IMG/VR virus record: IMGVR_UViG_3300046459_000427 | Span: 1-64,000 of that record | Length of the DNA: 64,000 bases | Source: a virus | Direction: 5' to 3' (one strand) | In this document: in pieces, positions 1 through 61,802 of the stretch | How positions within the stretch are numbered: position 1 is the stretch's first letter | How the letters are laid out: every line of letters begins with the position of its first letter | Position numbers and translations under genes: made by a program | The notes under the pieces: generated by a model | Database searches by the model: none | The model's input: the letters and a program-made list of their open reading frames with translations, nothing else | What the model was told of the DNA's origin: nothing

Positions 1-122
1 GGCGCGGTATGAAGAAGCGGCGTATGGGGGCGCAGGTTCACCGCGTGAACGAAGAAGGGCCCCACCCCATGTGTATTCGGCATGGGATGGAGCCTATTCT
101 CCGGGCGGCCGGAAATGGTAAA

Positions 123-590
123 TCAGTCGACGCCGGTCGGGGAATCGAGGTCATGCTCGGGCGCGTAGGGGAAGTTGTTCAACACGCGGTTGATCCCTCG
201 GCCCGGGGACTTCCAGCGTTTCATGTTCCGCCAGACATTCGGTGGGACGTTGTAGTAGCCGTAGACCTGGCCATTTCGGAACCGTACCCGTAGCGTCTGA
301 GCATCCCTGTCATATCCTGCGGCAAGGGTCCTCGGACGCGGCGGATTGATGGAGGGGGTCGGCTGGTAGGGGAGGAGATCGAAATCGTCTCCGTCCTTGG
401 CCAACTGAATGGCGTCGGAGGTCTCCTGGCTAAGCACCCGGCGGGATCCTGCTCGGGCGGAGGGGTTGGTGTTGCTGGAGGGTATTTCGACGGCGGGCGC
501 TGGTGGGGTCAGATCCCCGAAGTCGAAGGACAACTGCTCGTAGGCATTGTTACGACTTCTCCCCCCGCCTCGGGGCTTTCTGGGTGCCAC
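123..590 (-). CDS. KTSC domain protein
   Basis: C-terminal AAGYDRDAQTLRVRFRNGQVYGYYNVPPNVW...SPGRGINR matches the KTSC pattern; disordered N-terminus with QLSFDF. Confidence 0.75.
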   Translation of the reverse strand: MAPRKPRGGGRSRNNAYEQLSFDFGDLTPPAPAVEIPSSNTNPSARAGSRRVLSQETSDAIQLAKDGDDFDLLPYQPTPSINPPRPRTLAAGYDRDAQTLRVRFRNGQVYGYYNVPPNVWRNMKRWKSPGRGINRVLNNFPYAPEHDLDSPTGVD

Positions 591-655
591 TGTGTCTCCT
601 TACAAAAACAGCCCCTGCCCCGGTGACGGGAAGCAGGGGCTGTCGGGTCCGGGGA

Positions 656-1054
656 TCAGGCCGGAACGTTGTCGACCGTGGAGGCCGTCGCCGGGGCCTT
701 GTCACCCGCGCCGGGGGCCGTGGAGGCCGCAGCGTTGATGGTGCCCTCGTAGACGGAGGTACCGGCGAGACGGTCGTCGGCCTCGGGGCCGCCGGGGTGC
801 TTGGCCGCCTCGTCGTCGGTCAGGACGATGAGACCGGCGTTCGCGGTCGCCGGGTCGATGCCAGCCGCGACCTGGAGGGCCGGGACGGGCAACTGCTTGG
901 CGACGAAGACCTGGCCGGGGACCGGGTCGGTGTTCTCGAACTTGGCGCCGCTCTGGACGGTCCAGCCGAGGTTGGGGGCGTCCCAGTCGGACGAACGGCC
1001 GGGGACGGGAGCGGGGACGGTGACCTGCTCGGCAGCGCTCTTGGATGCAGCCAC
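656..1054 (-). CDS. hypothetical protein (Ala/Pro-rich, possibly virion)
   Basis: RBS AGAGGAAG upstream of GTG, phage-like codon bias, hairpin downstream at ~608-643. Confidence 0.6.
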   Translation of the reverse strand: MAASKSAAEQVTVPAPVPGRSSDWDAPNLGWTVQSGAKFENTDPVPGQVFVAKQLPVPALQVAAGIDPATANAGLIVLTDDEAAKHPGGPEADDRLAGTSVYEGTINAAASTAPGAGDKAPATASTVDNVPA

Positions 1055-1227
1055 GTTTCTTCCTCTTTCGTACAGGGGTTAAGGGTTACCGGTTTTGCTG
1101 GACGGTCCAGCCCGGTTCCTTCACCGGACCCTCTTCGTCCTCTTCTCGATTATGAGGGCAATCAGGGCCGGAATAGACATGCTGACCCTCATGGAAGATG
1201 CAGCTCGTTACATACATGGGTGTGCTC

Positions 1228-1416
1228 CTACAGGGAACTGCCTGCCTCGGTAAATGAGCCTACCGGCATTCCTCCGGGACTTTCCCATGGCTGGCCTCCG
1301 GCGAATTGATCGGCGGATAGCAGGGCACTGCGGAGAGGGGATCCTCCGACGGTGAAGGCGTAGCCCCCTGCGTACGCGTCTCCGGTGGCGGGGATGGGCT
1401 CAGGCGTCTTGGGCAT
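1228..1416 (-). CDS. small hypothetical protein
   Basis: overlaps the stop of the upstream gene; GGAGGA RBS. Confidence 0.45.
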   Translation of the reverse strand: MPKTPEPIPATGDAYAGGYAFTVGGSPLRSALLSADQFAGGQPWESPGGMPVGSFTEAGSSL

Positions 1417-1606
1417 CGGGTTCCTCCCGGGCGGCGTCGAAGCCGGAGCGCAGGCGGGCCATCTTGCCCTTGTAGGTGCGCAGGCGGGACATGTGCTCGC
1501 AGGCCGACTCCACGATGGCGCCTACCTCTTCGAGGCAGCGGTCCACCAGGTCTTCGATGTCGGCGATGTCGTCGCGTGTCTCGCGGGTCTGGGGAAGCAG
1601 TGGCAT
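1400..1606 (-). CDS. small hypothetical coiled-coil protein
   Basis: TGATG coupling with upstream gene, AGGAG RBS. Confidence 0.55.
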   Translation of the reverse strand: MPLLPQTRETRDDIADIEDLVDRCLEEVGAIVESACEHMSRLRTYKGKMARLRSGFDAAREEPDAQDA

Positions 1607-4911: not shown

Positions 4912-5772
4912 TTGTCCAGTCCGACCGTGCTGAAGCGACGGCTGGGTGCCGAGCTGCGCAAGATGCGCCGTGCTCGGAACCTGACCACTGCGCAGGTCGC
5001 CAAGGAATTGGGCTGGTCCGAGTCCAAGGTCAGCCGCATCGAGACGGGCAAGTCTCCGCTGTCTGACCAGGATGCCAAACTTCTGCTTGCGCAGTACGGC
5101 GTTGAGAATTCCGATGAGGTCCGGCAGTTCATCGCGTTGACTCGCAAGAGCCGACAGAACGGCTGGTGGCACTCCTTCGGCGATGCGCTGCCGGAGTGGT
5201 TCAAGCCCTACCTGGGGTTCGAGTCGGACGCTGCATCGATCTGGACGTACCAGAACGAACTGGTGCCCGGACTGCTTCAAACGCTCAGATACGCGCAGGC
5301 CGTGATCCGGTCAACGGAGCTGGACTTCTCTGCCGAAGAGGTGGAGACCCGTGCAAGTGCGCGAGTCCAGCGGCAGGAAATCCTGACCTCCGATGCACCC
5401 CCCAAGGTCTGGGCGGTCCTCAACGAAGCGGTGATCCGCCGGATCGTAGGCTCGCCTGGCATCATGCAGGAGCAGTTGAACGCACTGGCGGACGTAGCGG
5501 AGGCGCTTCCCAATGTCACTGTCCAGGTACTGCCGTTCGACGCCGGGGCCCACGTCTCGATGGGCTACAGCTTCTCCTATCTGTCCTTCGAGGACGTCCC
5601 CGGCTCCATCGTCTACGCGGAAGGGATCACAAGCGGCACGTACTTCGACAAGCCATCCGACCTGAGCCGTCACGAGGACATGTTCCAGCGGCTGGTAGCC
5701 GCGTCCGAGCGGCCCGAAAAGTCCATTGACCTGATCAGAAACATCGCAGAGGAATACAGCCATGCAGGGTAA
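4912..5772 (+). CDS. XRE-family HTH regulator with DUF5753 domain (WhiJ/Scr1-like)
   Basis: RRLGAELRKMR...SKVSRIETG, WWHSF, VPGLLQT..YA, AVLNEAVIRR, QVLPFDAGAH. Confidence 0.9.
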   Translation: MSSPTVLKRRLGAELRKMRRARNLTTAQVAKELGWSESKVSRIETGKSPLSDQDAKLLLAQYGVENSDEVRQFIALTRKSRQNGWWHSFGDALPEWFKPYLGFESDAASIWTYQNELVPGLLQTLRYAQAVIRSTELDFSAEEVETRASARVQRQEILTSDAPPKVWAVLNEAVIRRIVGSPGIMQEQLNALADVAEALPNVTVQVLPFDAGAHVSMGYSFSYLSFEDVPGSIVYAEGITSGTYFDKPSDLSRHEDMFQRLVAASERPEKSIDLIRNIAEEYSHAG

Positions 5773-5962
5773 CCAGGACCTCGTATTCGTCAAGAGCAGC
5801 TTCAGCAACGGCACGGCCGAGTGTGTCGAGGTCGCCGTTACGGCCGACGGCGGCCGGGCTGTCCGCGACTCCAAGAACCCCCAGGGCCCGGTGCACTTCT
5901 TCACCCCGGGTGAGTGGACCGCATTCATCAAGGGAGCGAAGGCCGGAGAGTTCGACGCCTGA
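5762..5962 (+). CDS. DUF397 domain protein (Scr2-like)
   Basis: KSSFS..ECVEVA...AVRDSKNPQGP...WTAFI. Confidence 0.92.
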   Translation: MQGNQDLVFVKSSFSNGTAECVEVAVTADGGRAVRDSKNPQGPVHFFTPGEWTAFIKGAKAGEFDA

Positions 5963-6022: not shown

Positions 6023-6532
6023 CTACAGCCACTCTCCGGTGATGGCGCCGTGGACGTCGGCCTCGCGGTAGGTGCCGGGCTTGAGGATCTTGCCGTCCTC
6101 GCGGCGGATCACCTGGCCGTCCGGGCCGACCTTGCTCATGTTACTTCTGTGTACTTCGGCGAATACGGACTCCAGCGGGATGTCGAGGAGTTGCGCGGTG
6201 CCGTAGACGACGTACAGGACGTCGGCGAGTTCCTTGGCCAGGGCCTCGTACCAGCGCGGTCCCTCGACGACGTGGAGGCCGGTTACGGCGCTCTCCGGGT
6301 GGGCCTCGAAGTGCTCGTCCATGATCTGGGCCTTACGGTAGTTCAGCAGGGCCTCCAGGGCCTCCTGAACCTCCTCGGTGATGAGGGTGGACCGCAGGGC
6401 GATCAGGTCGTCCCGTCCGGCGTCGTCACACTCGATGAAGGGCTTCTCCCCCACGGCGCGGTGCCACTGTCCCAGCGCCCGCATGGGGCGGTGGGTGGAG
6501 GTATGAAGCAGGGTCTTCGGGATGCTGCGCAA
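6023..6532 (-). CDS. MazG-like/PRA-PH nucleotide pyrophosphohydrolase
   Basis: LITEEVQE, KELADVLYVVYG, EVHRSNMSK, REDGKILKP. Confidence 0.85.
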   Translation of the reverse strand: MRSIPKTLLHTSTHRPMRALGQWHRAVGEKPFIECDDAGRDDLIALRSTLITEEVQEALEALLNYRKAQIMDEHFEAHPESAVTGLHVVEGPRWYEALAKELADVLYVVYGTAQLLDIPLESVFAEVHRSNMSKVGPDGQVIRREDGKILKPGTYREADVHGAITGEWL

Positions 6533-7306: not shown

Positions 7307-7490
7307 TGTCTTCCTCCAGGTTGTACTTGCCGTAGAAGTCGATGTGCAGGCTGTCGTTGTTCTGCGCGCGCTCCAGCCAGCGGTCGGCGAAGACCTGGCG
7401 GGCGTAGAAGAAGGTCTTGGCGGTCCAGGCGCCGTCCTTGTTGATCAGCACCCGGACCTTCCACAGATGGTTGTCCCTAGGCGTTCGCAC
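7296..7490 (-). CDS. hypothetical protein
   Basis: codon bias, operon packing. Confidence 0.5.
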   Translation of the reverse strand: MRTPRDNHLWKVRVLINKDGAWTAKTFFYARQVFADRWLERAQNNDSLHIDFYGKYNLEEDSVA

Positions 7491-7803
7491 CAGCAGCCCC
7501 TCCGGGCAAGATATGAAGCGCGCCGGGCTGGTCGAGGGACATGAAGGGGTCGGCCAACTGGACGGCTACCTGGCAGAAGGCGTTGCCGATGGCCTCCTGG
7601 ACGCCGCCGAGGCCTTCGAGGGTGTTGGCCAGTTCCAGGAGGGTGCCGACGACGTCCTTGATCGCGACGAAGTACTCGCCGTCGTCGTCCTGGATGTAGC
7701 GGTAGGACGCCTCGTGCTCGGACGTGGTCTCGGTGAGGATGCTCAAGGGGGTCTCCAGGGTCGTGGTGGTGGTGGGGGGCTTACAACCAGATGCGGTACT
7801 CAC
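7477..7803 (-). CDS. hypothetical protein
   Basis: codon bias, operon packing. Confidence 0.5.
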   Translation of the reverse strand: MSTASGCKPPTTTTTLETPLSILTETTSEHEASYRYIQDDDGEYFVAIKDVVGTLLELANTLEGLGGVQEAIGNAFCQVAVQLADPFMSLDQPGALHILPGGAAGANA

Positions 7804-9016
7804 TGGTGACGCGGCCCTTCTCGGGGTTGATGAAGTGCAGGCGCTGGGAGGGGTCTCCCGTGGCCGCCACGAATTCGTGGGCGTAGATGTTGTCCGATTC
7901 CGGTGAACCGGTCATGTAGACCGAGCCTCCGTTGGCCAACTGCAACTGCATGGACTGGTGGTAGTGGCCGATGTAGAGGTCGCGGAAGGCCGGGAGGACG
8001 CCGGAGGCCCACTGGTTGGCCTTGCGGAGGATGCCGTAGGCAGGGATGTTGCCGCCGAAGGACTTGATCTCGTCGCCGTGGATCGCCATCGCGGAGTAGT
8101 TGCCGATGGTGAAGTGCTGGTACCAGTCCCCCGACGTCTGGAACTTCGTCAGCCGGGGCTCGTCGGCCAGGCGCTCCTTGACTATGTTGTAGACCATGCG
8201 GTCGACGTTGTCGGAGGCCTTGATGCCGTCCGACTTCTTGCCGAGGCGGCCGTGGTTGCCGTACTCGGCGATGACCTCCACCGTCTCGTAGGTATGAAGC
8301 GCCTGCTTGATCGTCCAGATCATCAGGTCGGCGACGTCGAACATCTGCTCGTACAGGGTGCCGTCGAGTTCCCAGACCTGGCCCGGGAAGATGCTCACGC
8401 CTTCGACAAGGTCTCCAGTGAAGAGCAGGACGCCGTGCTTGACCGGATGGTCGGCGCGCTGGATCTCCGTGATCTCGTTGGCCTTCTCGACGTAGCGCAT
8501 GATGCGGGTCCGCATGATGGTGCGGTCGTACGTGATGGTCTTCTTGCCGCCCTGCCAGTCCGTGAGGTGCCACAGAGCGACCTCGGACGGCTTGGTGCGC
8601 CGGTCCCGCGCCGGAGGCTCGACGGGGCTCGCTCCGACGTACTGCGCGGCGTCGCTGGCTGCGCGGTAGACGGCCTCGATGTACTCGTCTCCGCGCGCCT
8701 TCGCCTTCTTGAACTGCTGGAACAGTCGGCGGTTGTCGGCCTCCAGGGCCTGGATCCGCTCGATCTGTTCCTCGTTCTCGGCCACTGCCTCGGCCGTGCC
8801 CTCCTCGGGCAGGGTATGAAGCGACTTCTCCTTGCCCGTCCCGACGAGGACCGCGCGCTTGTAGCCGTTGGCCTTGCGCCAGCGCCGGACGGCGGTCTCG
8901 GAGGTCTCCACACCGTTGAAGTTGAGGTCGTCGGACGCGGCCTGGTGACCGACGTTGGCGTCCATCAGGATCTCGCGGACCCAGTCGACCTCGATGTACT
9001 CGGCGAGCGTGCTCAA
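7781..9016 (-). CDS. calcineurin-like metallophosphoesterase with N-terminal HTH/coiled coil
   Basis: TDWQ, TGDLVEG, GNHGR, HGD and GHYH motifs. Confidence 0.85.
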   Translation of the reverse strand: MSTLAEYIEVDWVREILMDANVGHQAASDDLNFNGVETSETAVRRWRKANGYKRAVLVGTGKEKSLHTLPEEGTAEAVAENEEQIERIQALEADNRRLFQQFKKAKARGDEYIEAVYRAASDAAQYVGASPVEPPARDRRTKPSEVALWHLTDWQGGKKTITYDRTIMRTRIMRYVEKANEITEIQRADHPVKHGVLLFTGDLVEGVSIFPGQVWELDGTLYEQMFDVADLMIWTIKQALHTYETVEVIAEYGNHGRLGKKSDGIKASDNVDRMVYNIVKERLADEPRLTKFQTSGDWYQHFTIGNYSAMAIHGDEIKSFGGNIPAYGILRKANQWASGVLPAFRDLYIGHYHQSMQLQLANGGSVYMTGSPESDNIYAHEFVAATGDPSQRLHFINPEKGRVTSEYRIWL

Positions 9017-9282: not shown

Positions 9283-9582
9283 ATGTTCTGGTTCTGCGAG
9301 ACGTGCAACGACTGGGGTGTCACGGACACCGAGGTCGACGCTGCGGTGGACCGGCAGCAGCACATGAGCGCTCACGCCGTCCGGGCGCTGGATACGACAG
9401 AGCCCCAGCAGGAGTCCGTGGCTGAGGTTGAGGACACTGTCCTCCGCGCCAAATACCTGGCGTGGGGTAGCACGGCTCTGCTGGGGCTACTGTCTGCTCG
9501 TTGGCACGCGCTGGCGGGGGTAGTGCCCTTCGCGGCCTTGCTCGCCTGGGTGGTGACCCAGTCGGGTAAAGAGGGTGAATGA
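9283..9582 (+). CDS. small membrane protein with N-terminal CxxC/HxxxH
   Basis: FCETC...QQHMSAH plus two hydrophobic segments; convergent on the tRNA cluster. Confidence 0.5.
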   Translation: MFWFCETCNDWGVTDTEVDAAVDRQQHMSAHAVRALDTTEPQQESVAEVEDTVLRAKYLAWGSTALLGLLSARWHALAGVVPFAALLAWVVTQSGKEGE

Positions 9583-9659
9583 CGGGGATTGAACCCGCAC
9601 GCTCCTTCCGGAACACCGGGGTCACAGCCCGGCGCGTCTACCATTTCGCCACACTCACC
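9574..9659 (-). tRNA. tRNA-His(GUG) with long variable arm
   Basis: G-1:C73, acceptor GTGAGTG/CATTCAC, anticodon arm CCGGG-CTGTGAC-CCCGG, T-loop TTCAAT. Confidence 0.8.
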
Positions 9660-10452: not shown

Positions 10453-10465
10453 AACAGCACTCCGC

Positions 10466-10606
10466 ACGCTTACGAGATTAGGTGACGGGCTCGGGTAAGT
10501 GCCTTTCCCTACCACAAATAGCTCTGCGGATTCGCCCCAAAAGATTCGGTCTCCCGCCCCTGTTCAGGGTTGAGTTCAGGATTTGTCCAGGAACAGGGCT
10601 CAGCGT
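10466..10606 (-). ncRNA. c-di-AMP (ydaO/yuaA) riboswitch
   Basis: CGCTGAGCCC...GGGAGACC..GGGGCGAATC...GTAGGG..CCCGAGCCCGTCACCTAA..GTAAGCG; P1 ACGCT/AGCGT; ends just before the NlpC/P60 RBS. Confidence 0.8.
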
Positions 10607-13907: not shown

Positions 13908-13957
13908 GTGCTTCTCCTTGGGAGTCTTCGGGCCGCAGCACTTGCACTTGTAGGGGC

Positions 13958-14257
13958 TCATCGACAGCACCCGTCGCAGCCGTGCAGGCCCTCGTAGGCG
14001 TCATAGTCCTCGCCCTGCATCAGGCGCTTGTAGGCGAGGTCGTCCGGGTCGGGGTGGCCGACTCCGTGGGGGCAGGTCCGTTCCATCAGCGCCCGGTCCA
14101 TGCGGAAGTGCTGGGGGAAGTCGGCCATGCCGTGGGAGGAGGGGTTGTGGATGGCGCAGTGGCGGCCGAGGCAGTCCTTGCGGGGGTGGGCGAGGAGGCG
14201 TTCCCCGCCCACCAGCTCGGCTTCCTCAAACCACCCGCCGAAGTCATCGGGCTCCAT
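13958..14257 (-). CDS. Cys/His-rich conserved actinophage protein
   Basis: CAIHNPS.H...ERTCPHGVGHPDPD...HGCDGCC. Confidence 0.65.
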   Translation of the reverse strand: MEPDDFGGWFEEAELVGGERLLAHPRKDCLGRHCAIHNPSSHGMADFPQHFRMDRALMERTCPHGVGHPDPDDLAYKRLMQGEDYDAYEGLHGCDGCCR

Positions 14258-18681: not shown

Positions 18682-18781
18682 GGAGAGACGCAACCTCTCG
18701 TATGTGGGACAGGTGTCCGGCTGGGTTGCCTCCCGGCCGGACACCCACATACCTAGGGCTAGGTATGAAGCCGGATGGTCT

Positions 18782-20140: not shown

Positions 20141-20198
20141 ATGACCCCTCACACTTTCTCTACGGCTTCGTACTTACGACTTCCGAAGCAGTAAGAGG

Positions 20199-49020: not shown

Positions 49021-49728
49021 TCAGGGGGCCACTCTTCCGTTGTTGGTGTAGGCGATGTAGGTGAGCGGGAAGTGCTCGGCGAACGCCTCCTCCATGTCCT
49101 GCGCGACCTTCTCGATCTCCTGCTGGGGGAAGGAGGGGAACGTGGCGGAGGGGACGCGGGTGCGCAGGCCGAGGAAGTGCATCAGCGAGCGCGGGTTGCA
49201 GGTGGCGTAGAAGGAGGTGAACAGGCCGACCGGGAGGACGTCGCGGGCGATCTCCTTGGCGACTCCGGCCTTGAGCATCCGCTGGTACGAGGACCATGCG
49301 GTGCGGTAGGCCTGCTCGTGCTCCGCGCGGGTGATGCCGTACTGCTCGTCTGTGCCGTCCACGAAGGTGTAGGCGCCGGGCTTGCCCTCCTGCACGAGGG
49401 GGCGCGTGCGGTCGGGGACGTAGAAGACCGGCTCCAACTCCCTGTACCTTCCGCTGGTTTCGTTGTAACTCCAGCCGGAGCGGTGGCGCATGAACTCTCT
49501 GGCCACGAAGATCGGTGCCTCCACGAGGAAGGACAGTTGTCCGTGCTCGAAGGGGCTGCCGTGCCGGTCCCGCATCAGGTAGTTGATCAGGCCGGAGGCC
49601 TCCCCCGACTCCGCCGCAGCAGAGCCGAGGGTGGACACGCGGGCCGCCTGGCAGATCTTCGCGTCGGACCCGGCGAGGTTGTCCAGGTCGAGTGTCGCGG
49701 TGATCTCGGAGCGCTGGGAGATCGTCAC
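49021..49728 (-). CDS. thyX: flavin-dependent thymidylate synthase
   Basis: HGSPFEH, REFMRHR..SYNETSGRY, ARDVLP. Confidence 0.95.
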   Translation of the reverse strand: MTISQRSEITATLDLDNLAGSDAKICQAARVSTLGSAAAESGEASGLINYLMRDRHGSPFEHGQLSFLVEAPIFVAREFMRHRSGWSYNETSGRYRELEPVFYVPDRTRPLVQEGKPGAYTFVDGTDEQYGITRAEHEQAYRTAWSSYQRMLKAGVAKEIARDVLPVGLFTSFYATCNPRSLMHFLGLRTRVPSATFPSFPQQEIEKVAQDMEEAFAEHFPLTYIAYTNNGRVAP

Positions 49729-50405
49729 TTGGCGGACACCTTGCTCTTCGGCGCCTCGTCGTTCTTGATCGTGGCCTTGAAGAAGGCCCCGGCCGCGTCG
49801 TGCCAGACGACGACACCTTCGGGGTCCTGGAAGCCTGGGGCGATGAAGGAGCCGTCCGACTCCAAGGTATGAAGCGCGATGTTGACGGCGTAGTTCAGGT
49901 CGTTGCCGTTGGCGACCAGGATGACCGGGACGACGGTGACCTCCGGCGGGGCCGGTACGGCCTTGGGGAAGGTCGTCAGGTACTGGTCGGTGACCTCGGG
50001 GTCGCGGATGTCGTACCAGCGGTTGACGTTGAAGAGCGCGAATCGCTTCTCGTCGAGGCCGTAGCCGGACTGGATGCCCTTGCCGAACCACTCGCCGTAG
50101 TGGCGGCCGGGGCCGAGCGCGGTCAGCGCCACGGAGTTGTCGAAGACCCAGTTGGCGAAGCCGAAGTTGTCGTTGTTCCGGTCCAGCCAGCGGTTGCGGC
50201 TGCCTGCTCGGACGATGAAGGGTTCGTTGTCGCGGTAGGCGAGGACTCCCTGGGAGACGTCCTGGGTGTCGGCGTCGAAGTCCGCGAGCGGGGTGATCTC
50301 GATCAGGCCGTTCGTGCCGTCGACCTTCTCGGTAAGCACGACCTTGCGGTGCAGGCGGGGGATGGGGCGGAACTTCGGGTAATCGCTGGCCTTGAGGATG
50401 GTCAT
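49725..50405 (-). CDS. second RNA ligase-family protein (Rnl2-like adenylation domain)
   Basis: TEKVDGTN, GSRNRW, YGEWFG.GIQ, EGVVV. Confidence 0.8.
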   Translation of the reverse strand: MTILKASDYPKFRPIPRLHRKVVLTEKVDGTNGLIEITPLADFDADTQDVSQGVLAYRDNEPFIVRAGSRNRWLDRNNDNFGFANWVFDNSVALTALGPGRHYGEWFGKGIQSGYGLDEKRFALFNVNRWYDIRDPEVTDQYLTTFPKAVPAPPEVTVVPVILVANGNDLNYAVNIALHTLESDGSFIAPGFQDPEGVVVWHDAAGAFFKATIKNDEAPKSKVSAK

Positions 50406-52603: not shown

Positions 52604-52941
52604 GGCAGTATCTCCTCGGCGTCCATTTCCGGATGCGCCAGGGCATGAAGCGCCAGGAAAGTCTCTTCGGACATCGTGATCCAGTTCCTTCCACCGGACA
52701 TCTGAGTCCCGAAGAGCATTTCCCTGCCATCGATCAGGGCTTGCTTCTCTGCGGTGATCAGTTCTTTTTCTTTGAGCGAGTACGAGCCCTTACTGGTGAC
52801 CTTGTACTCGATCGAGTAATCCGGAGTGCGGACGTCGTTCTTTCGCACCCAACCGTTGCCGCTACCCGCGTTCACCGTCCCGCCGAGGAGTTCCGCTCCC
52901 CGCCGCTCCTGCCTCTGGCTCTTCTTGAGCATGTCCGCCAT
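52597..52941 (-). CDS. Holliday junction resolvase-like PD-(D/E)xK nuclease
   Basis: QERR.A..LGG...GSG...KNDV...IEYK. Confidence 0.65.
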   Translation of the reverse strand: MADMLKKSQRQERRGAELLGGTVNAGSGNGWVRKNDVRTPDYSIEYKVTSKGSYSLKEKELITAEKQALIDGREMLFGTQMSGGRNWITMSEETFLALHALAHPEMDAEEILPW

Positions 52942-53073: not shown

Positions 53074-54258
53074 TCAGGCGGCCTGGGTATGAAGCCCGTC
53101 GGCCTCTTCCGGCTTCGGCCGTCGGCTGACCTTCTTGGTGCCCGAGTTCTCGGCGGCCGTCAGGTCGTCCTCGGAGATGGAACGCTCATCCGCGTGCTGC
53201 GAGGCGGCGAGGACCTTTTCGTAGAGGAATTCCTGGAGGTCCAGGTCCTCTCGAATTGCGGCGAGGGTGTTCTCCTTGCTGTGCCAGCGAAGGACGGGCT
53301 TTCCCCTGTCGTCGTATTCGCCGTTGTCGACCTCGTAGTAAGCGCCCGCGCGCTTGATGACGTCGAAGAGGATCCCCATGATCATGATTTCCTTTGTGGT
53401 GTCGAAATCACCACGGGTGAAATTCAGATAGGGAGCGGAGCGGAAGTAGGCGTCGATCGTGGCGATCTGCTGCGGGGCCGCCGACTTGTTCTTGATGGTC
53501 TTCACCTTGATGACCTGGCCGACGTTCACCTTGCCCTTTCCGGGCCGAGGCTCCTGAATCCACTCGTCGCGTCGGACTTCCACCCTGGTGTAGAACGCAT
53601 AATTCTTCGCGTTTCCGCCGGGGGTTGTGGTCGGCGTGCCGTGCGGGGAGAACTTGCCGATGGCGTCGCGGTACTGGTTGATGACGATGCCGAGCAGCGG
53701 GCGGTCCTCGGGGTCGGTCATGCTGCGCTTCGTCGCGGCGCCGGACTTCCGGAAGAACTTGCCGGTGAGACGGGCGCCCAGCGCCATGGTCGCCTCGTCC
53801 ATGTCCTTCTCGGACTCCTCGTCCGGTATGAGCGCCGGGTAGGAGTCGAGGACGATCATGTCGACCGAGCGGGACGTCGCGAAGTCGAGCATGGTCTGGT
53901 AGGCGAATTCCATGGCCTGGGTGGGGACGACGATCACGCGGTCGTTGTCGACGCCCAGCGCTTCGGCCTGGTCGGTGTCGTAGTGCTCTGCGGCGATCCA
54001 CAGGCACGTGAAGTCGGGGTCCTTCTTCTGGTTGGCGGCCAGCGTCTTGTAGACGATGAAGGTCTTGCCGTGGGACTCACGGCCGATGACCTCGACCCAC
54101 TGGTTGCCCGGCCAGCCACCGCCGAGGGCGATGTCCAGGGAGAGGGAGCCGGAGGTGAAGCGCTTGGCCACGCGCATGTCCGAGGCGAAACACACGGCAC
54201 CCGGATGGGTCTTGTTGATCTTGGCGAGAAGTGCGAGGGCGTCCTTGTTCACGCTCAA
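53074..54258 (-). CDS. recA: RecA-like recombinase
   Basis: SGSLSLDIALGGG.P, GRESHGKT, VLDS, INQ.R, TPGG. Confidence 0.92.
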   Translation of the reverse strand: MSVNKDALALLAKINKTHPGAVCFASDMRVAKRFTSGSLSLDIALGGGWPGNQWVEVIGRESHGKTFIVYKTLAANQKKDPDFTCLWIAAEHYDTDQAEALGVDNDRVIVVPTQAMEFAYQTMLDFATSRSVDMIVLDSYPALIPDEESEKDMDEATMALGARLTGKFFRKSGAATKRSMTDPEDRPLLGIVINQYRDAIGKFSPHGTPTTTPGGNAKNYAFYTRVEVRRDEWIQEPRPGKGKVNVGQVIKVKTIKNKSAAPQQIATIDAYFRSAPYLNFTRGDFDTTKEIMIMGILFDVIKRAGAYYEVDNGEYDDRGKPVLRWHSKENTLAAIREDLDLQEFLYEKVLAASQHADERSISEDDLTAAENSGTKKVSRRPKPEEADGLHTQAA

Positions 54259-54417
54259 CAGGGGCCCCCGTAGGTATGAAGTCGCATGTGTGGTGTTACT
54301 CCTGATCCGATAGCGCGGAAGCGATAACGAAGAACCGGTAGTCCCCATACCATAACGGTGAAGGGACTACCGGTCCACTCATGTATCAACTAGTCCAGCG
54401 AAGAACTTTGAGAACTT

Positions 54418-56379
54418 TCAGGCAGTCACGAGGTCGACGTCCTCGCAGCCACCGGCCGCCGAGCAAGCCAGCGCCTGGGAGCCCACGGTCTGGTCGTAGG
54501 TCTCGTAAAAGGCCAGGTCCGACCACTCGACGCGGTGCTCCTGGGTGATCAGAGCCTCGTACTCGGCCTCCGTGATCTCCTCGTACGGCGCCTGCACGTA
54601 GGTGTGATCGCTGTACGGAAGGAAGGAGACTCCCGAGATCTCGCCCAGGTGCTCCCAGACCCACTCGCCGACCTCGTCCCACTCGTGCTCGCGCACGCTG
54701 ATGGTCACCGACGGCTTGTGCTCGCACCAGAAGCGCTGATAGGCGAGCCAGATCTTCAGGTGCTCGATCGCGGAGACGTCTTCACGCACCAGCGCGGTGT
54801 TGCTGGCACGCTGGGCGAAGGTGAACACCCACGCCGAGGAGTTGTAGGCGTCCTCCTCGTGCGGAATCCCCCCGTCGATCATCACGAACGAGATGGGGTC
54901 CTTCTTGTCCACCCGCACGCGCCGCTTGTAGAAGCGGGCGTGCTTGGTATGAAGCCCGCTCTCGCAGTCGACCAACTGGGAGACGGTCCCGGAGGGCTTC
55001 ACGCAGGTGATCGCGTCCGAGGACGGGATGCCGATGCGCCGGGCCTCCTTCTCGTTGGCGATGCGGGCCGTCAGGCGAAGGTCGGTCAGCGTGAGGGACG
55101 TGAGGCCGTCACCCTTGCTGCCGTCGGTGTTCTGGTTGCCGAAGACCCCGGTGAGGGAGACGCCCAGCAGCCGCTCCTCCTCCGCGTTCTTGCGCCACTC
55201 CTCACGCAGGTACGGGTAGTCCGTCAGCGTGCTCTGCCAGGTGCCCAGGGTGGCCGCCAGGCTCACCTTGCGCTCCAGGTCCTCGACGGTGTCCTCCGGC
55301 CGCACGACGACCTCGGACAGGTTGCAGAACGAGAACGGCCGAAGAATGATCTCCGAGCACGGGTTGGTCCCGTAGTCGGTGTCGGCCGAGCGGTGCCCGT
55401 ACTTCGCAGCCTGACGCTGGGCCGCACCACGGTGGAAGATGCCACGCTCACCCGAGCCGCTGGCTACCAGGGAGCCCCACTCGGCGCGGAAGTCCTCGTG
55501 ACGCATGCCGTCGTAGTAGACGGCCGAGTTGTTGGCCAGCGCACGGTAGCCGTGATCCTTCCACCACTCCCCAGCCTTCGCCTGCGCCATCTCCTGGTCG
55601 TCCAGATCGGACAGGGAGATCATCGCGGACCGCCGGACACCACCGACCACGACGACGCTGGCTATCTTGCAGGCGATGTCGTGGACCTCGATCGGCCGGA
55701 ACTTCCGACCGGCGGCCTGGTGGAACTTCTCCACGGTGAACGCGAACAGTTCGTCCAGCGGACCCGGGCCGGAGGCACGCCCACCGAAGGTACGAAGGCG
55801 GGCACCGGCAGGCCGGATCCCGGACAGGTCCCACTGGTGTACCTCGCCCTGCCACAGGCCTTCCAGCAGGGCCCGGAACGCATAGCCCCAGCCCTCCTTG
55901 GAGTCCTCGACGACGATCACGTCGGCAGACGCCCGAAGGGTGTCCGGGACGGCAGGCAACTGGTCGGTGTACTGGCGCTCGACCGAGTAGCCGACGCCCG
56001 TGCCGTTCATGAGGATGTAGAGGAGTTCGTCCAGGGCGCGCGGGTCCTGGAGCGGCAGGTACGAACAGTTGAAGCCCGCGATGTTCGAGCGGTCCAGGGC
56101 GGCACCGGCCGTCATCACCGCGCGCATCGACGGCATGACCTCGTGGTTGAGGACCGCCTGGCGGACGGCCGCGACGACCCCCTGCTCGGGGATGTAGTCG
56201 TGCTTGTCCTTCAACTGGCCGAGCATGAAGTCGACGTAGCGGTCGACGGTCTCGGTCCAGGTCTCGCGGCGGTTGCGCTCCTCGTCCCAGCGGGCGTACC
56301 GGGACTTGGCGATGAAGGAGCGGTAGGGGTCGGCGATGTCGCCGGTCGGAGTGAGCAGGGAGGTCACCAGGAGGTCCAT
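54418..56379 (-). CDS. nrdJ: class II (B12-dependent) ribonucleotide reductase
   Basis: FNCSY, TNPCSEI, CVKPSGTVS, EHKPS, C-terminal C..GGC. Confidence 0.92.
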   Translation of the reverse strand: MDLLVTSLLTPTGDIADPYRSFIAKSRYARWDEERNRRETWTETVDRYVDFMLGQLKDKHDYIPEQGVVAAVRQAVLNHEVMPSMRAVMTAGAALDRSNIAGFNCSYLPLQDPRALDELLYILMNGTGVGYSVERQYTDQLPAVPDTLRASADVIVVEDSKEGWGYAFRALLEGLWQGEVHQWDLSGIRPAGARLRTFGGRASGPGPLDELFAFTVEKFHQAAGRKFRPIEVHDIACKIASVVVVGGVRRSAMISLSDLDDQEMAQAKAGEWWKDHGYRALANNSAVYYDGMRHEDFRAEWGSLVASGSGERGIFHRGAAQRQAAKYGHRSADTDYGTNPCSEIILRPFSFCNLSEVVVRPEDTVEDLERKVSLAATLGTWQSTLTDYPYLREEWRKNAEEERLLGVSLTGVFGNQNTDGSKGDGLTSLTLTDLRLTARIANEKEARRIGIPSSDAITCVKPSGTVSQLVDCESGLHTKHARFYKRRVRVDKKDPISFVMIDGGIPHEEDAYNSSAWVFTFAQRASNTALVREDVSAIEHLKIWLAYQRFWCEHKPSVTISVREHEWDEVGEWVWEHLGEISGVSFLPYSDHTYVQAPYEEITEAEYEALITQEHRVEWSDLAFYETYDQTVGSQALACSAAGGCEDVDLVTA

Positions 56380-57308: not shown

Positions 57309-59288
57309 TTACTTTGCCTCCGACCAGCGGTCCACGATCTTCACGTCGGAAGACAGCGGAACCTTGAGCAGTTTCTGAATGTCGTCGCCGAGCATGGCTT
57401 CCTTCACCAGAGCGGCGGCTTCCTCGGCGCGGTCCTCCGGAGCGAGCACCACGAGTTCGTCGTGCACGGAGAGGATCAGCCGGATCTCGTCCGGCAGGAT
57501 GTTGTTCAGCCGGATCATCGCCAACTTGATCAGGTCGGCAGCCGAGCCCTGGATGAGGCTGTTGACTGCCTGGCGCTCGGCACCCATGCGCAGGCCGTTG
57601 TTCTGCGACAGGATGAGCGGCAGGCGCCGCTTGCGGCCGAGCAGCGTGCGGATGTACGGGGGTCGGCGCGACCGGCAGACCCGGACGACTTCTTCCTTGA
57701 AGCGGTAGATCTCGGGGAACAACTTCTGGTGCATCTCCATGAAGCGCTTGGCTTCCTTGACGGAGATCTTCGCCATCGATGCGACCTTGTCCGGGCCTGC
57801 ACCGTAGACGACTGCGAAGTTGATTCCCTTGGCGACCTGGCGGAAGTCGATGCACTCCCGGTCGCCCGCCTTTACCCGCCGGATGAATTCCTGCGGGTCC
57901 ACTCCCATAAGAGCGGCAGCGGTGGCCGAGTGAGGGTCGACGCCGTTGTGGAAGCCCTTGTACAGATCGCCTCGGCCGATGAAGTGCGCGAGCACGACCA
58001 GTTCGATCTGTCCGTAGTCCGCGACGACCAGTTTGTATCCGGCCGGTGCCACGAACAGTCCACGGATTCGCTTGCCGAGTTCCGTGTCCGGGCGCGGGAT
58101 GTTCTGGAGGTTGGGTTCCCGGCAGGAGAATCGTCCGGTCACCGTTCCGTACTGGACGAAGTCGGCGTGGATCCGGCCGCCGAATATCCGGCAGGGCTTC
58201 TTCGGGTCATCTTCGACCCCGAGGTAGGACACCGGGTAGTCGATCAGCTTGCTGACTTCGGAGTACTCCAGCAGCTTCTTGACGACGGCGTTGTTCTCGT
58301 GCTTTTCCAGGCTGGCGGCGTCGGTGGAGTAGTCCTTCCACTCCAGCTCCTGCCCGGCCTCGCGCTTCTTCTTGCCGCCGTCGGTCGGCTTGGTGGGGCG
58401 CAGGCCCTGGCCGCCGTCCTTCTTGGGTGCGTACAGCACCTCGGCCTTCTGGGCCGGGGCGTTGAGATTGAACTGCTTGCCCGCAGCGCGGTAGATGTCC
58501 GCCTCGATGTCCACCAGGCGCTCGGACATGTCGCGGACCAGCTCGCGCATGGCCTGCTCGTCGACCGGTGCCCCGGTGATGCCCATGTCGAGCAGTACGC
58601 CGAGGACGTCCTCTTCCAGTCGCCGGACGTTGATCAGGTGCTGGTCGTCGATCCGCTTCTGGAACTTCTTCCAGAGCAGGTAGGTGTACTTCGCGTCCAT
58701 GTAGGCGTAGTGGCCCACCTTGGAGAAGGGGTGTGCCTCGACGCACTTGCCGACGTTCTCAGTGTCGTAGTCGACCTTGTAGTAGCGCTTGACGAGTTCC
58801 TTGAGGCCCTTCTGTTTCATGTTCTCGTCGAGGAGCCACTGAAGGACGATGGTGTCCGAGTACTTCGGGGGTGCGATCTCGCCCCAGTACTTCGCCGTGG
58901 AGATGAGGTCGAAGGTCGCGTTGTGCGCGATCTTGATCTTGTCCTCGGCGAAGAACAGCGGCTTGAGGATGGAGAACACCTCGGAGGGGAGCATCTGCTC
59001 CGGCGGGGCGTCGTAGACGGCCGGGATGTTGTCGAACTTCCCGGTGATCTTGTTCTTCTTCTTCGTGGCCTTGCTCAGCAGGACGTCGCCGTTGGGGTGG
59101 CCGAACGGAATGGCGTAGGCCTCACCGTCGGTGGCCAGGCTCATCCAGTTGGCGACGTTCTGTGTCGGGACTCCTCGGTTGGCGCCGAAGGTCTCGATGT
59201 CGAAAGCGAAGGCCGGGCGCTCCATGAAGCGCTCGACCAAAGTATGAAGTCGGTCGGGGGTGAGGATGACGCTGTTCCGGATGGTCAC
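57309..59288 (-). CDS. polA: family A DNA polymerase with 3'-5' exonuclease
   Basis: FDIET, HNATFD, TGRFS..PNLQNIP, ADYGQIEL, AKGINFAVVYG, VHDE. Confidence 0.95.
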   Translation of the reverse strand: MTIRNSVILTPDRLHTLVERFMERPAFAFDIETFGANRGVPTQNVANWMSLATDGEAYAIPFGHPNGDVLLSKATKKKNKITGKFDNIPAVYDAPPEQMLPSEVFSILKPLFFAEDKIKIAHNATFDLISTAKYWGEIAPPKYSDTIVLQWLLDENMKQKGLKELVKRYYKVDYDTENVGKCVEAHPFSKVGHYAYMDAKYTYLLWKKFQKRIDDQHLINVRRLEEDVLGVLLDMGITGAPVDEQAMRELVRDMSERLVDIEADIYRAAGKQFNLNAPAQKAEVLYAPKKDGGQGLRPTKPTDGGKKKREAGQELEWKDYSTDAASLEKHENNAVVKKLLEYSEVSKLIDYPVSYLGVEDDPKKPCRIFGGRIHADFVQYGTVTGRFSCREPNLQNIPRPDTELGKRIRGLFVAPAGYKLVVADYGQIELVVLAHFIGRGDLYKGFHNGVDPHSATAAALMGVDPQEFIRRVKAGDRECIDFRQVAKGINFAVVYGAGPDKVASMAKISVKEAKRFMEMHQKLFPEIYRFKEEVVRVCRSRRPPYIRTLLGRKRRLPLILSQNNGLRMGAERQAVNSLIQGSAADLIKLAMIRLNNILPDEIRLILSVHDELVVLAPEDRAEEAAALVKEAMLGDDIQKLLKVPLSSDVKIVDRWSEAK

Positions 59289-59368: not shown

Positions 59369-60178
59369 TCAGTCGTTCAGGATCTCGCGGGCGATCTGCT
59401 TGAGTTCGTTGCGCGTGTTCACCTGGAGGACGTCCTCGTCGTACGCCTTGTCGTCGAACTCCTCCAGGTCCTCCTCGGTCAGGGGCTCGACGTCCCAGTC
59501 ATCGAGGAGGTCCCGCTCCTTCACGGGGGTGATGTAGTAGGTCGTCTTGTTGTTCTTGGACTGCTTGGAGACGGAGAAGTACAGGTCGTCCCGGTTGATC
59601 GGCGCCGTCTTCTTGTCCTTGGAGTAGTTCTTGAGGATGTCCGCGACCATCGGGCCGAACTGCCAGATCTTGACCTGCGGGTCCTCGGGGTCGGTGAAGT
59701 CGACGACGTTGAAGCAGACCTGCTGGGAGGGCTTGTCGCCTGCGTCGTCGCACAGGGGGCAGCGGGACTCCAGGCACGTCCAGGACCGCTTGCCCTTGCG
59801 CTCGATCCAGTGCTGGAGGAAGACCAGGAACGGCTCCTCGTCGAGGATCTTCACGACCACGGCCTCGCCGGTCACCTTGAAGTTCTCGGGGAAGCCGGAC
59901 GTGGCGCTCTTGGTCTTCTCGTACGAGCCCCATCCCTTGCCGCCGACCTTCGGGGTGGGCTCGTCGTCCTCGTCGTCCTCCTGGGAGCGACGCGAGCGAC
60001 GGGAGGAGGTGTCGGCCTCCTCGGTATGAAGCGACTGGCGGCGCGAGCCACGGCGGGAGCCCCGGGCCGGACGCTCGTCCTCGTCGTCCTCCGGGAGGTT
60101 GTTGTCCTCCGGCTCGTCGGCGGGGGTGTAGGCCTCGGTGGACGCGGCGGTGCGGCGGCGGGTGAGGGTGCGGGGCAT
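59369..60178 (-). CDS. single-stranded DNA-binding protein (gp32-like)
   Basis: QHW...C...CPLC Zn motif, acidic tail, next to Pol A. Confidence 0.6.
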   Translation of the reverse strand: MPRTLTRRRTAASTEAYTPADEPEDNNLPEDDEDERPARGSRRGSRRQSLHTEEADTSSRRSRRSQEDDEDDEPTPKVGGKGWGSYEKTKSATSGFPENFKVTGEAVVVKILDEEPFLVFLQHWIERKGKRSWTCLESRCPLCDDAGDKPSQQVCFNVVDFTDPEDPQVKIWQFGPMVADILKNYSKDKKTAPINRDDLYFSVSKQSKNNKTTYYITPVKERDLLDDWDVEPLTEEDLEEFDDKAYDEDVLQVNTRNELKQIAREILND

Positions 60179-60417
60179 CAGGTGTTCTCCTGCTGGTAGA
60201 GGTGTACGTACGACTTGTTCTCGGCGGTGTTCAGCCGGGCCTCTTCGATGTCGGCCGCCAGTGAGGTGACCAGGTACTCGGAGGCGATCGTGTCCAGGTC
60301 CCCGAGCGTCTTGGCTGCGGGGAACTCCTCGGAGTCGACGGTGATCTCGGCACCGAATTCGACCCACTCGAAGTTGCCCATGGACACGTGGTGCTTGGCA
60401 CTGCGGGTGATCTTCAC
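60178..60417 (-). CDS. hypothetical protein
   Basis: SMGNFEWV; coupled. Confidence 0.55.
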   Translation of the reverse strand: MKITRSAKHHVSMGNFEWVEFGAEITVDSEEFPAAKTLGDLDTIASEYLVTSLAADIEEARLNTAENKSYVHLYQQENT

Positions 60418-60875
60418 TGCTCGGCCAGCCGCTTGAAGAGGTCGATGACGCGGAGGGTGAAGTTGGTGCCCTTGATCGGCTTCTGGTGGGAGACCAGGAC
60501 GCCTTCCTCGTACGCGATGCGGACGATGCCCTCGACCTGCTCACGGGTGTAGAGGCGGCGTCGCCCGCGTACGTCGTCGTCCCGGCCGGGCGACTGGAAG
60601 GTGGACTTGGGGATAATCCCCTCGCGCTCCCACTTGCGGATGGTGACCGGCTGGCGGCCCAGGGCGCGGCCGAGCTGGCCGACGGTGAAGAACTCGGTCT
60701 CGACGCCGCCCACGTTGTACTTGCGGGGCTTGGCGTCCCAGTCGGCCGCCGAGGTGGCGGCCTGGGTATGAAGCCCGTTGCGGTTCTGGTGGCGGACGAT
60801 CGGCTTGGTGGATCCGGGGTAGAACTGCTCCCCGATCTCGGCGAAGTCCTGCTCGATGCTGGCGAGGGTGCTCAT
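60414..60875 (-). CDS. MerR-like HTH DNA-binding protein
   Basis: FTVGQLGRALGR..VTIRKWEREGIIP...RRLYT. Confidence 0.8.
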   Translation of the reverse strand: MSTLASIEQDFAEIGEQFYPGSTKPIVRHQNRNGLHTQAATSAADWDAKPRKYNVGGVETEFFTVGQLGRALGRQPVTIRKWEREGIIPKSTFQSPGRDDDVRGRRRLYTREQVEGIVRIAYEEGVLVSHQKPIKGTNFTLRVIDLFKRLAEQ

Positions 60876-60887
60876 GTGGTGGTTCTC

Positions 60888-61364
60888 CTAGCCCTGGAGC
60901 GGCTTGAACGCGTACGAGATGTTCTCGGTGAACAGGGCGTCGAGTTCCTCATCCGAGATGAGGCCCTCCTGGTTGAGGACGTACAACTCGTCCTGGTCCA
61001 GGACCGTGGTGGTGACTTCCTTGTAGACGCGGTCGCGGATGCCCTTCTCGTTGACCAGGGTCTCGACGGCGTCCTCATCCAGGCCGACGGAGGTGCGCTT
61101 CTCGCGCTTGACCTCGGTGAAGCGCTGGCCGTTGACCTCGATGGGGGCCGGGAGTTTCCAGAACTTGGAGCCCTTCTCGTCGGTCTCCCCGGTGGCGTCC
61201 ACGTAGGCGCTGATCTCGTCGCGCAGGTGGTTCTTGCGGGTGACTACCTGGGTCTCCTGGAACTTCAGGATCAGGAACTGTCGGACCTTCTCGATGGGGT
61301 TCTCGGGGTCGAGGTTGATGGGCTTCTCGACCCGGCGGGTGGTGCGTCTCTGGACGGTAGCCAT
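60888..61364 (-). CDS. hypothetical protein
   Basis: promoter TCGACA-N17-TAGAGT at 61413-61441. Confidence 0.6.
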   Translation of the reverse strand: MATVQRRTTRRVEKPINLDPENPIEKVRQFLILKFQETQVVTRKNHLRDEISAYVDATGETDEKGSKFWKLPAPIEVNGQRFTEVKREKRTSVGLDEDAVETLVNEKGIRDRVYKEVTTTVLDQDELYVLNQEGLISDEELDALFTENISYAFKPLQG

Positions 61365-61448
61365 AGAGCGTGGGCTCTCTTTCTTCCGGAGTAGTTGGTC
61401 GATCGAGTAGTGACTCTACACTACCGATTCGAAGTTGTCGATTCTTGA

Positions 61449-61802
61449 TTACGCCTTCTTGAAGGCATCCCGGAACGCCTGGCGGGCAGCGTAGCGGCGG
61501 GCCGCTTCGTCCTTCTGGTCACGGCGGAGGACCGTCTCGGCCACGTCCTGGTAGACGGTGACGACGCGCTTCTCTTCCGGGTCGACGACGGCCACGAGGT
61601 CCCCCCGGATGTGCCGAACCTGTCCAGGAACGCGGCCCGAGGGGTAGGTATGAAGCGGCTCGTTTGCCGCGAGGAGAACGTCCGCGCTGCTCCAGCCCTT
61701 GGCGGCGGCCTGCTGCTGCGCGTGGTGGGTCAGCCGGTAGGTCGGTGCGTCAGTGACGGCTGCGGACCAGGTGATGCCAAGGGTCTCTGCGATGGTGGCC
61801 AT
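61449..61802 (-). CDS. DUF4258-like (RelE-fold) protein
   Basis: YRLTHHAQQQ..KG...VAVVD...VVTVY; promoter TTGACA-N17-TAGTGT at 61848-61876. Confidence 0.6.
   Translation of the reverse strand: MATIAETLGITWSAAVTDAPTYRLTHHAQQQAAAKGWSSADVLLAANEPLHTYPSGRVPGQVRHIRGDLVAVVDPEEKRVVTVYQDVAETVLRRDQKDEAARRYAARQAFRDAFKKA

Follow-up and report, generated by a model that had tools for sequence, protein, structure and literature searches.

The DNA considered here is the first 64 kb (64,000 nucleotides, the window) of the IMG/VR virus record IMGVR_UViG_3300046459_000427, a single contig of 104,853 bases, and the question it raises is what could read a nine-base word, GGTATGAAG, that recurs along it in one orientation. 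The initial annotation had taken the word for a dispersed, oriented signal, and coordinates and shuffles bear this out: each of the 23 + strand positions listed for GGTATGAAG holds an exact copy, the - strand of the window holds none, and 100 dinucleotide shuffles of the window gave a mean of 0.16 copies and a maximum of 2. The next base is C in 17 of the 23 copies, as had been noted; the G+C content, put at about 68 %, is 64.8 %. The full record contains 27 distinct + strand copies plus one inverted copy at 101832, and the copies at 6 and 104732 are the same site, the record's final 127 bases (genome 104727–104853) being a repeat of its first 127 (window 1–127). This terminal overlap looks like an artefact left by the assembler in a circular or permuted assembly, not like a true terminal repeat. 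Judged against composition, TATGAAG leads the genome's over-represented 7-mers, GTATGAAG the 8-mers and GGTATGAAG (with the overlapping form AGGTATGAA) the 9-mers, and the 7-mer core is divided 39 to 1 between the strands. A codon-usage gene caller placed about 140 of 147 genes on the - strand, and Pfam matches support - strand genes for MazG, PNKP, two RNA ligases, dNMP kinase, RecA, class II ribonucleotide reductase (RNR), PolA, an SNF2 helicase and others; since nearly all genes lie on this strand, the sense form of the word is CTTCATACC. The degenerate form CTTCATA(C/T)(C/T) has about 40 copies in the whole genome. One-mismatch forms in the sense orientation are mainly CTTCATATC (n=7) and CTTCATACT (n=4), in frame or within short open reading frames (mini-ORFs), and the opposite orientation holds eight near-matches, scattered and chance-like.

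Inside genes the word is read in a single frame (frame 0), as CTT-CAT-ACC (Leu-His-Thr), in 23/23 exact copies, and among eight full genomes of this phage group 252/252 intragenic copies are sense and in frame 0, the inverted copies apart. As the initial annotation had stated, other Leu-His-Thr tripeptides are written differently, although they are few: 27 of 29 use the codons of the word, the two exceptions lying in the genes at 2559 and 39720. For Leu-His-Ile the figure is 7/8, making 34/37 in frame 0 for Leu-His-Thr and Leu-His-Ile together, and Leu-His-Thr itself is eight times commoner than amino-acid frequencies predict. Almost half of the CAT codons (37/78) fall within CTT-CAT, in a genome that uses ATA 30 times, TCA 39 times, CAT outside the motif 41 times and TTA not at all; outside the word CUU occurs 129 times, CAU 41 times and AAU 101 times. 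The enrichment holds against a codon-preserving null: 300 protein-preserving synonymous-codon shuffles gave a mean of 5.1 sense copies vs 28 observed (about five of the 5.1 being copies outside gene calls that the shuffle leaves untouched), and a mean of 0.02 antisense copies. The view that selection acts on the nucleic acid and not on the peptide is sustained, rare codons being fixed and wobble positions held across relatives.

Relatives in IMG/VR comprise 42 loci at 86–96 % PolA identity and two more at 67 %. Sixteen loci form a CAT type that carries CTTCATACC (165 sense and 0 antisense copies in 629 kb), and 24 form an AAT type that lacks CTTCATACC and carries CTTAATACC (CTT-AAT-ACC) at 12–14 sense copies per 22 kb, with no antisense copy. 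When sites were mapped in four CAT-type and four AAT-type full genomes, about 35 proved common to both types position for position, and their sole difference is base 4, with no exceptions. Both rare wobble T's within the word are retained among relatives in which flanking wobble identity is about 0.71–0.81, so that the synonymous-site comparison also came out in favour of the signal. Sites specific to the CAT type correspond to an ordinary His codon in the other lineage (CTGCACACC, CAGCACACC) and those specific to the AAT type to an ordinary Asn codon (CTGAACACC); recruitment of new sites, from CTGCACACC to CTTCATACC or from CTGAACACC to CTTAATACC, is always in frame. That lineage-specific sites stand on ordinary His or Asn codons indicates that sites are still being made, mostly by synonymous or conservative changes. 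The PolA tree does not settle which of the two types is older. Single copies of CTTAATACC occur in otherwise CAT-type genomes (G011:C18:136147, and the 3' end of recA in L029/L030) and are either relics of the switch or recombination imports. Cultured phages are distant, BRock having 52 % PolA identity and lacking the word, and no comparable word was found in BRock, the two 67 %-identity contigs or three Streptomyces prophages of 52–55 % PolA identity.

Is the constant frame simply a consequence of coding? For CTTAATACC it is, as the other frames give TAA, or TTA plus ATA. For CTTCATACC it is not: frame 1 (nnC TTC ATA CCn) costs one rare codon and frame 0 costs two, and each CAT-type genome has about nine places where the word could be written in frames 1 or 2 by synonymous change alone; a single base change would do at some of them, most are in genes that have no site yet, and the word occupies none. 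Lineage-specific gains in frame 0 number at least 10, some with amino-acid changes. It is mainly because the frame-1 and frame-2 places stay unused while gains keep arising in frame 0 that we place the reading step at translation. Beyond the three codons the sequence logo shows G at -1 (60 %), S at -2, T at +10 (41 %) and A at +11 (48 %), positions 8–9 tolerate pyrimidine exchange, and the word is followed by a Tyr codon in 11 % of cases (3.3 % background) and by a stop codon at 6 of 99 sites, both being enriched there.

Copies outside called genes conform to the same rule. All lie in short ORFs, in frame 0, with a start codon 1–5 codons upstream of the word, and no copy was found in untranslated DNA. 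Most of these mini-ORFs have a recognisable ribosome-binding site (GGAGG, GGGAGG or AGGAG; weak at 69167), and most of their stops overlap the next start as TTGA, GTGA, TAGTG, TAATG or TGATG. Coupled mini-ORFs number three in the phage genome and three in a prophage relative described below, about 10 % of copies. The mini-ORF MGISLHTYRLLGAAE overlaps by GTGA a 335-aa gene at 68136–69143 (a putative replication initiator). In both types most genomes have ahead of this gene a leader ORF of 15 codons, with one or two codons more or fewer in a few of them, and the leader peptides differ; the peptides of mini-ORFs are not conserved (MGISLHTYRLLGAAE vs MSSRLNINGGFGAAE), and what is conserved is the ORF and the nucleotide word. 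Likewise, the recA leader keeps across relatives an ATG-N3-word arrangement and an overlapping stop and start (TTGA or GTGA) while the intervening sequence varies; in the AAT type the word forms codons 3–5 of recA itself, and an 11-base insertion separates the two arrangements. Two further mini-ORFs of the prophage encode MRLHTWAAV (TAATG overlap) and MNNRLHTSAEAANASA (TGATG overlap). An 8-codon leader at 18759–18785 ends well before the next start, and in the prophage relative the word of this locus ends a longer ORF. Directly after this word and its stop (18759–18770), ahead of the gene at 17986–18750, lies a strong conserved hairpin (window 18690–18760, - strand; GGUAUGUGGGUGUCCGGCC...GGCCGGACACC...CCCACAUAC; z = -4.6 for a 126-nt fold); the prophage copy has an indel here, which suggests a non-coding stretch and a gene start at a later ATG. 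The sole inverted copy sits in frame near the start of a small, divergently transcribed ORF adjoining the integrase gene, in five genomes, and reads CTTAATACC in the AAT type, having switched with the rest. Since the inverted copy sits in an inverted ORF, orientation follows expression and not the DNA strand, the outcome that the initial annotation had asked to see where genes change strand.

The word is distributed by gene rather than by length. Some 40 non-early genes are marked, with about one word each: 33 of 34 genes have no more than one site, the count does not scale with gene length, and random length-weighted placement hits fewer genes (P = 0.002–0.02 in three of four genomes, which are not independent of one another). 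Sites are biased towards 5' ends, with 10 at most 20 codons from the start vs 3.3 expected and a median relative position of 0.23–0.30, and a smaller excess is seen at 3' ends; the 5' bias could reflect where proteins tolerate change. Marked genes are those of replication and nucleotide metabolism together with some structural genes, the 35 kb of structural genes having few copies, mostly in variant forms, and mean spacing in the dense zones is 1–2 kb. A 17-kb block at 19.4–36.4 kb (window 19400–36400, - strand) has no site vs 6.0 expected (P = 0.0025). Because 9 of the 18 promoter-like sites of the genome (TTGACA-N16–19-TANNNT) lie in this block, it probably consists of early genes.

In Streptomyces sp. 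NPDC002088, reached by a search with the phage WhiB protein, a full relative with a PolA identity of 94 % is integrated (contig NZ_JBEOXO010000018, 76,232–182,980; 106.7 kb), flanked on both sides by host DNA of 70–72 % G+C. The prophage junctions place attP at genome 104055–104153, beside the integrase gene, an inverted gene at 102077–104107 (+) whose 676-aa product is a large serine recombinase by Pfam; a tyrosine recombinase is encoded at 100605–101681. Serine recombinase, attP and integrated full relative together show that this 105-kb phage group is temperate and that a cultured lysogen exists. The prophage has about 45 copies of the word, 39 in-frame sense, 5 in mini-ORFs or N-termini and 1 inverted, and its only off-pattern matches are two weak CTTCATATT forms, one of which is the sole intragenic exception (39/40 in frame 0). 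Outside the prophage contig the NPDC002088 genome has about 41 matches, on both strands, vs 21 for a reversed control pattern. Seven further Streptomyces genomes of 400 carry prophages at 52–55 % PolA identity.

The explanation that we put forward, as a tentative one, is that the word is read in frame on the translating ribosome and thereby gates non-early genes, leader ORFs included. Written as (S)G-CTT-MAT-AYC-(TA), with M being C here and A in the sister lineage, it would be a cis-acting signal in non-early mRNA: with Leu(CUU)-His/Asn(NAU)-Thr/Ile(AYY) in the ribosome sites, elongation would be checked, either as a pause or through a ribosome-bound factor. One word per cistron would set the amount or timing of that gene's product, and a word in a leader ORF (recA, the putative replication initiator and others) would gate the downstream gene by translational coupling, while the presumably early genes served by host-type promoters, being without the word, would escape the check. 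Between the lineages the specificity of the reader would have changed by one base, and about 35 sites would have followed. Both the involvement of the ribosome and the direction of the effect are what we infer from these patterns. Several points weigh against this reading. A three-codon word of this kind is without precedent, and neither the Pfam, PHROG and NCBIfam scans nor association mapping found a reader. CUU, CAU and AAU are decoded by ordinary tRNAs, the phage's own tRNA-His is absent from one complete CAT-type genome (G009), and neither the +1 nor the -1 frame shows an excess of early stops downstream of the word. The weak preferences beyond the three codons suit equally well a protein or RNA contacting 11–13 nucleotides. 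If CTTAATACC is ancestral, the frame of the shared sites was forced by coding, and the frame requirement then rests only on the 10–12 later gains and the unused places. Finally, a concerted one-base switch is a classic mark of diverging immunity specificity, and the phage is temperate.

Several candidate readers were considered and set aside. The phage tRNA-His cannot be a required one, as G009, a complete genome of the CAT type, encodes tRNAs for Pro, Phe, Leu and Asn alone; a class-II-like tRNA-His(GTG) is present in this phage (G000), G006 and G008 only and absent from AAT-type genomes. In the window this tRNA is 86 nt long (9573–9658, - strand), adjoins tRNA-Asn, has a long variable arm and a tRNA-Leu-like D-arm, and by eye keeps G-1:C73; the tRNA-Leu(CAA) beside it is a possible progenitor. 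Antisense ORFs opening at the ATG within GGTATGAAG were rejected, the sister type having ATT and only 3 of 23 reaching 80 aa, as was a trans-acting antisense RNA, the sole genomic complement being the inverted copy, whose small divergent ORF has a -10-like element of its own. A frameshift site was dismissed for want of excess early stops in the shifted frames. The XRE-DUF5753 and MerR-like proteins, proposed in the initial annotation as readers, have nearly the same helix–turn–helix (HTH) regions in both types, with no type-specific change, and are therefore unlikely to tell the types apart. Association mapping by fixed differences and gene trees over the 42 loci gave no unique candidate, most genes separating the types; the longest branch between CAT and AAT types belongs to the DnaG-type primase, and the list of clade-specific genes was too long to single out a reader. 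Pfam scans of about 115 of the roughly 147 called genes, structural genes being left unscanned, found neither a toxin-like ribonuclease nor a sigma factor, and Pfam, PHROG and NCBIfam scans of the same number gave no candidate RNA-word nuclease or RNA-binding protein.

One lead, which is not evidence, concerns tRNAs with G34. tRNA-guanine transglycosylase (TGT) acts on tRNAs with a GUN anticodon, the ones that decode His, Asn and Tyr; the middle codon of the word is NAU, Tyr codons are enriched after it, and the gene at 36706–38244 (- strand), of 512 aa, matches PHROG 887 (queuine tRNA-ribosyltransferase; E = 1e-75) and, weakly, a DpdA cluster in the Atlas, with no match in Pfam, NCBIfam or PDB sequences. 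Its predicted DpdA/TGT-like product may modify DNA or tRNA. It has a FLDSGAYT motif and a C-terminal Cys cluster, and no preQ0 synthesis genes were seen nearby. TGT is missing from three Streptomyces genomes, one of them the host of the prophage, and present in 14 of 14 control genomes.

Of the alternatives to in-frame reading, a stoperator-like DNA site is the one that deserves most thought, although we find it doubtful. A phage repressor, in the lysogen or late in infection, would bind the asymmetric duplex word and stop RNA polymerase in an orientation-dependent manner, the CAT and AAT types being two immunity groups. Such a repressor would be at home in a temperate phage with a serine integrase, an attP beside it and a 106.7-kb prophage between host flanks, and would account for some 40 asymmetric sites oriented with transcription, for an extended consensus of 11–13 bases and for its concerted switch between sister lineages; the early promoters, lacking the word, may have an operator of their own. 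There is also a precedent in the 13-mers of L5-type phages, which have more than 20 sites and act orientation-dependently (PMC9283540). However, known stoperators sit in promoters or short intergenic spaces, whereas here untranslated DNA is free of copies, and binding to DNA should not call for frame 0 everywhere, mini-ORFs included; nor does any repressor candidate co-vary uniquely with the type, the HTH regions of the XRE-DUF5753 and MerR-like proteins showing no type-specific change. The frame is also awkward for an RNA site read without regard to it, which we consider unlikely. Here a sequence-specific endoribonuclease or RNA-binding repressor, of the kind of T4 RegB or RegA or a MazF-type enzyme, would recognise single-stranded CUUMAUACC in middle or late mRNA, for shut-off or processing, the frame lock being a by-product of ancestry and codon cost. 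The sense-only copies, including that in the inverted ORF, the marked class of replication, nucleotide-metabolism and some structural genes, the roughly one copy per cistron with a 5' bias, a contact length of 11–13 nucleotides and the tolerated pyrimidine exchange at positions 8–9 are all as this would predict, but it leaves unexplained why copies keep to frame 0 when the CAT type could write the word most cheaply in frame 1, and why start codons and ORFs are kept around the intergenic copies; moreover, the scans turned up no nuclease or RNA-binding candidate, and no antisense RNA bears the complement.

The remaining possibilities fare worse. A cue for DNA metabolism, whether a strand-specific nick or base modification, a Chi/KOPS-like polar cue, a packaging signal or a primase start, is very improbable. 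It would be consistent with copies on one strand over 100 kb at 1–2 kb spacing in the dense zones, and with the presence of the DpdA/TGT-like gene and of a DnaG-type primase that has the longest between-type branch, yet the inverted copy follows its ORF and has co-switched, counts do not scale with length, 17 kb have no copy and the 35 kb of structural genes few, the frame lock has no place in it, and the sense word has no G for a guanine transglycosylase. The inverted co-switched copy, the missing length scaling and the empty 17-kb block thus make a poor fit for the nick, Chi/KOPS and packaging candidates of the initial annotation, whose stoperator-like and mRNA-level candidates are the likelier ones. 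Least credible of all is that the word is a minimal promoter of the T4-late kind, used by an RNA polymerase that the phage has redirected. The word is indeed short, AT-rich and oriented, and lies in regions without host-type promoters; however, most copies are intragenic, at codons 3 to 476 and not upstream of starts, transcripts begun there would be truncated (PolA at codon 14, RNR at codon 476), and no sigma-factor family was found in the Pfam scans, RNA polymerase subunits not having been specifically sought.

No described system matches, and every known family that we considered fails at least one testable defining feature. Cluster A mycobacteriophage stoperators, bound by repressors of the L5 gp71 type (PMC9283540; PMC6550527), are similar in belonging to temperate actinobacteriophages, in having more than 20 dispersed asymmetric sites with orientation tied to transcription and in a consensus that differs between related immunity groups; they differ in being 13-mers in promoters and intergenic regions, whereas the phage core is 9 nt long and confined to a single frame of translated ORFs, no repressor to match it was identified, and the word is missing from the block that holds the host-type promoters. 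The resemblance to the control of Streptomyces genes by bldA lies in an in-frame rare element, usually one per gene, and in the dependence of a gene set on one decoding step. That control uses a single codon, TTA, and one dedicated, developmentally regulated tRNA; in the phage three codons and their flanks are fixed, general tRNAs serve and TTA is never used. Regulatory leader ORFs of the ermC, cat and secM type, which arrest through a nascent peptide and a ligand, share with our mini-ORFs their shortness, their own ribosome-binding site, the overlap with the regulated gene and the keeping of the ORF while the peptide is mostly not kept, but in the phage conservation is at the nucleotide level and the majority of copies are within long genes. 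Words of the T4 RegB/RegA and MazF type act at ribosome-binding sites or anywhere in RNA and ignore frame; they too are short RNA words marking one temporal class that includes replication and nucleotide-metabolism genes, but the phage word is frame-locked and no such protein turned up among the scanned genes. The start-associated sequences of cluster K mycobacteriophages, 13-base words that lie upstream of the start codon, include the ribosome-binding site and have no known function, are repeated words tied to translation starts in an actinobacteriophage, whereas the phage word comes after the start, in frame and often far into the gene. Nick sites of T5 and tf are all on one strand whatever the gene direction, in contrast to the inverted, co-switched copy of five genomes, and Chi and KOPS follow replication and scale with length, in contrast to at most one site per gene, none in 17 kb and an orientation that follows the gene.

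If the frame requirement is real, the word would represent a new layer of viral gene control, in which a nucleotide word works only when translated, once per gene, and its specificity co-evolves across dozens of unrelated genes; it would provide a natural system for three-codon context control of ribosomes, and the CAT and AAT types might serve as portable orthogonal switches for Streptomyces engineering. If it is a repressor site instead, stoperator-like control would for the first time be known from outside the mycobacteriophages, here embedded in coding sequence, and would show clearly how immunity specificity shifts by one base at about 35 sites. Either reading can now be tested, as cultured Streptomyces sp. 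NPDC002088 carries a full prophage with its roughly 45 copies.

Individual sites of the window, all sense on the - strand and, where a codon is given within a gene, in frame 0, are as follows. The copy of CTTCATACC at 6–14 is codon 18 of a 95-aa ORF spanning the record ends (it is the site at genome 104732). Further copies lie at 6500–6508 (codon 9 of the MazG-like gene 6023–6532, assigned by Pfam), at 8291–8299 and 8813–8821 (codons 240 and 66 of gene 7781–9016, the sole gene with two copies), at 13572–13580 (codon 131 of the polynucleotide kinase-phosphatase gene), at 15025–15033 (codon 109 of the T4 Rnl1-like RNA ligase gene) and at 17325–17333 (codon 18 of gene 16872–17384). At 17921–17929 the word forms codons 3–5 of gene 17684–17935, in the order AGGAGG, GTG, ACC, word. 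The 8-codon leader at 18759–18785 encodes MKTIRLHT behind its own GGAGG, the word (18762–18770) being its last three sense codons, and the mini-ORF at 19329–19382 encodes MKRLHTYAASVEQGGQR, with the word at 19365–19373 and a TAG that overlaps the GTG start of gene 19144–19329. Beyond the word-free block, CTTCATACC recurs at 36437–36445 (codon 35 of ORF 36149–36547), 38601–38609 (codon 107 of gene 38271–38927), 41974–41982 (codon 17 of gene 41644–42030), 43621–43629 (codon 174 of a peptidoglycan-binding, lysin-like gene), 44887–44895 (codon 406 of 418, gene 44854–46110), 48232–48240 (codon 191 of 202, dNMP kinase gene) and 49866–49874 (codon 178 of RNA ligase gene 49725–50405). recA has a copy at 53086–53094 (codon 389 of 394), and its leader mini-ORF (54255–54287), encoding MRLHTYGGPC, has the word at 54273–54281 and a TGA overlapping the TTG start of recA. 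The class II RNR gene carries its copy at 54946–54954 (codon 476), where the sister lineage has CTGCACCAG; those at 60023–60031 (codon 50 of gene 59369–60178), 60765–60773 (codon 35 of the MerR-like gene) and 61647–61655 (codon 50 of gene 61449–61802; CAGCACACC in the sister lineage) complete the exact copies. All five variants that the initial annotation had listed are present: CTTCATATC at 2020–2028 (codon 78 of 81, gene 2014–2259), 7510–7518 (codon 96 of 108, gene 7477–7803) and 40392–40400 (codon 60, gene 39720–40577), CTTCATACT at 59241–59249 (codon 14 of the DNA polymerase I gene) and CTTCATATG at 37957–37965, in frame in the DpdA/TGT-like gene, where the sister lineage has CTTAATATG. 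A decayed copy, CTTCATGCC, stands at 52642–52650, where relatives carry CTTCATACC or CTTAATACC.

In a 114-aa protein encoded beside the phage WhiB (52597–52941, - strand) a D...E-x-K pattern was seen by eye and suggests a small PD-(D/E)XK nuclease; the protein is conserved at 92–97 % within the CAT type vs about 76 % between types. The XRE HTH-DUF5753 protein (WhiJ-like) forms an inverted pair with a DUF397 protein (BldB-like) at 4927–5962 (+ strand), typical of Streptomyces regulatory or toxin–antitoxin-like pairs, and the pair may be expressed in the lysogen. At 10453–10586 (- strand), within the tRNA cluster and directly ahead of an NlpC/P60 hydrolase gene, Rfam identifies a c-di-AMP (ydaO) riboswitch (68.8 bits). 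An RNA repair set comprises the PNKP and T4 Rnl1-like ligase genes (13038–15357, - strand), the second RNA ligase gene at 49725–50405 and an RlaP-family nucleotidyltransferase among small genes, and suggests a defence against a host anticodon nuclease.

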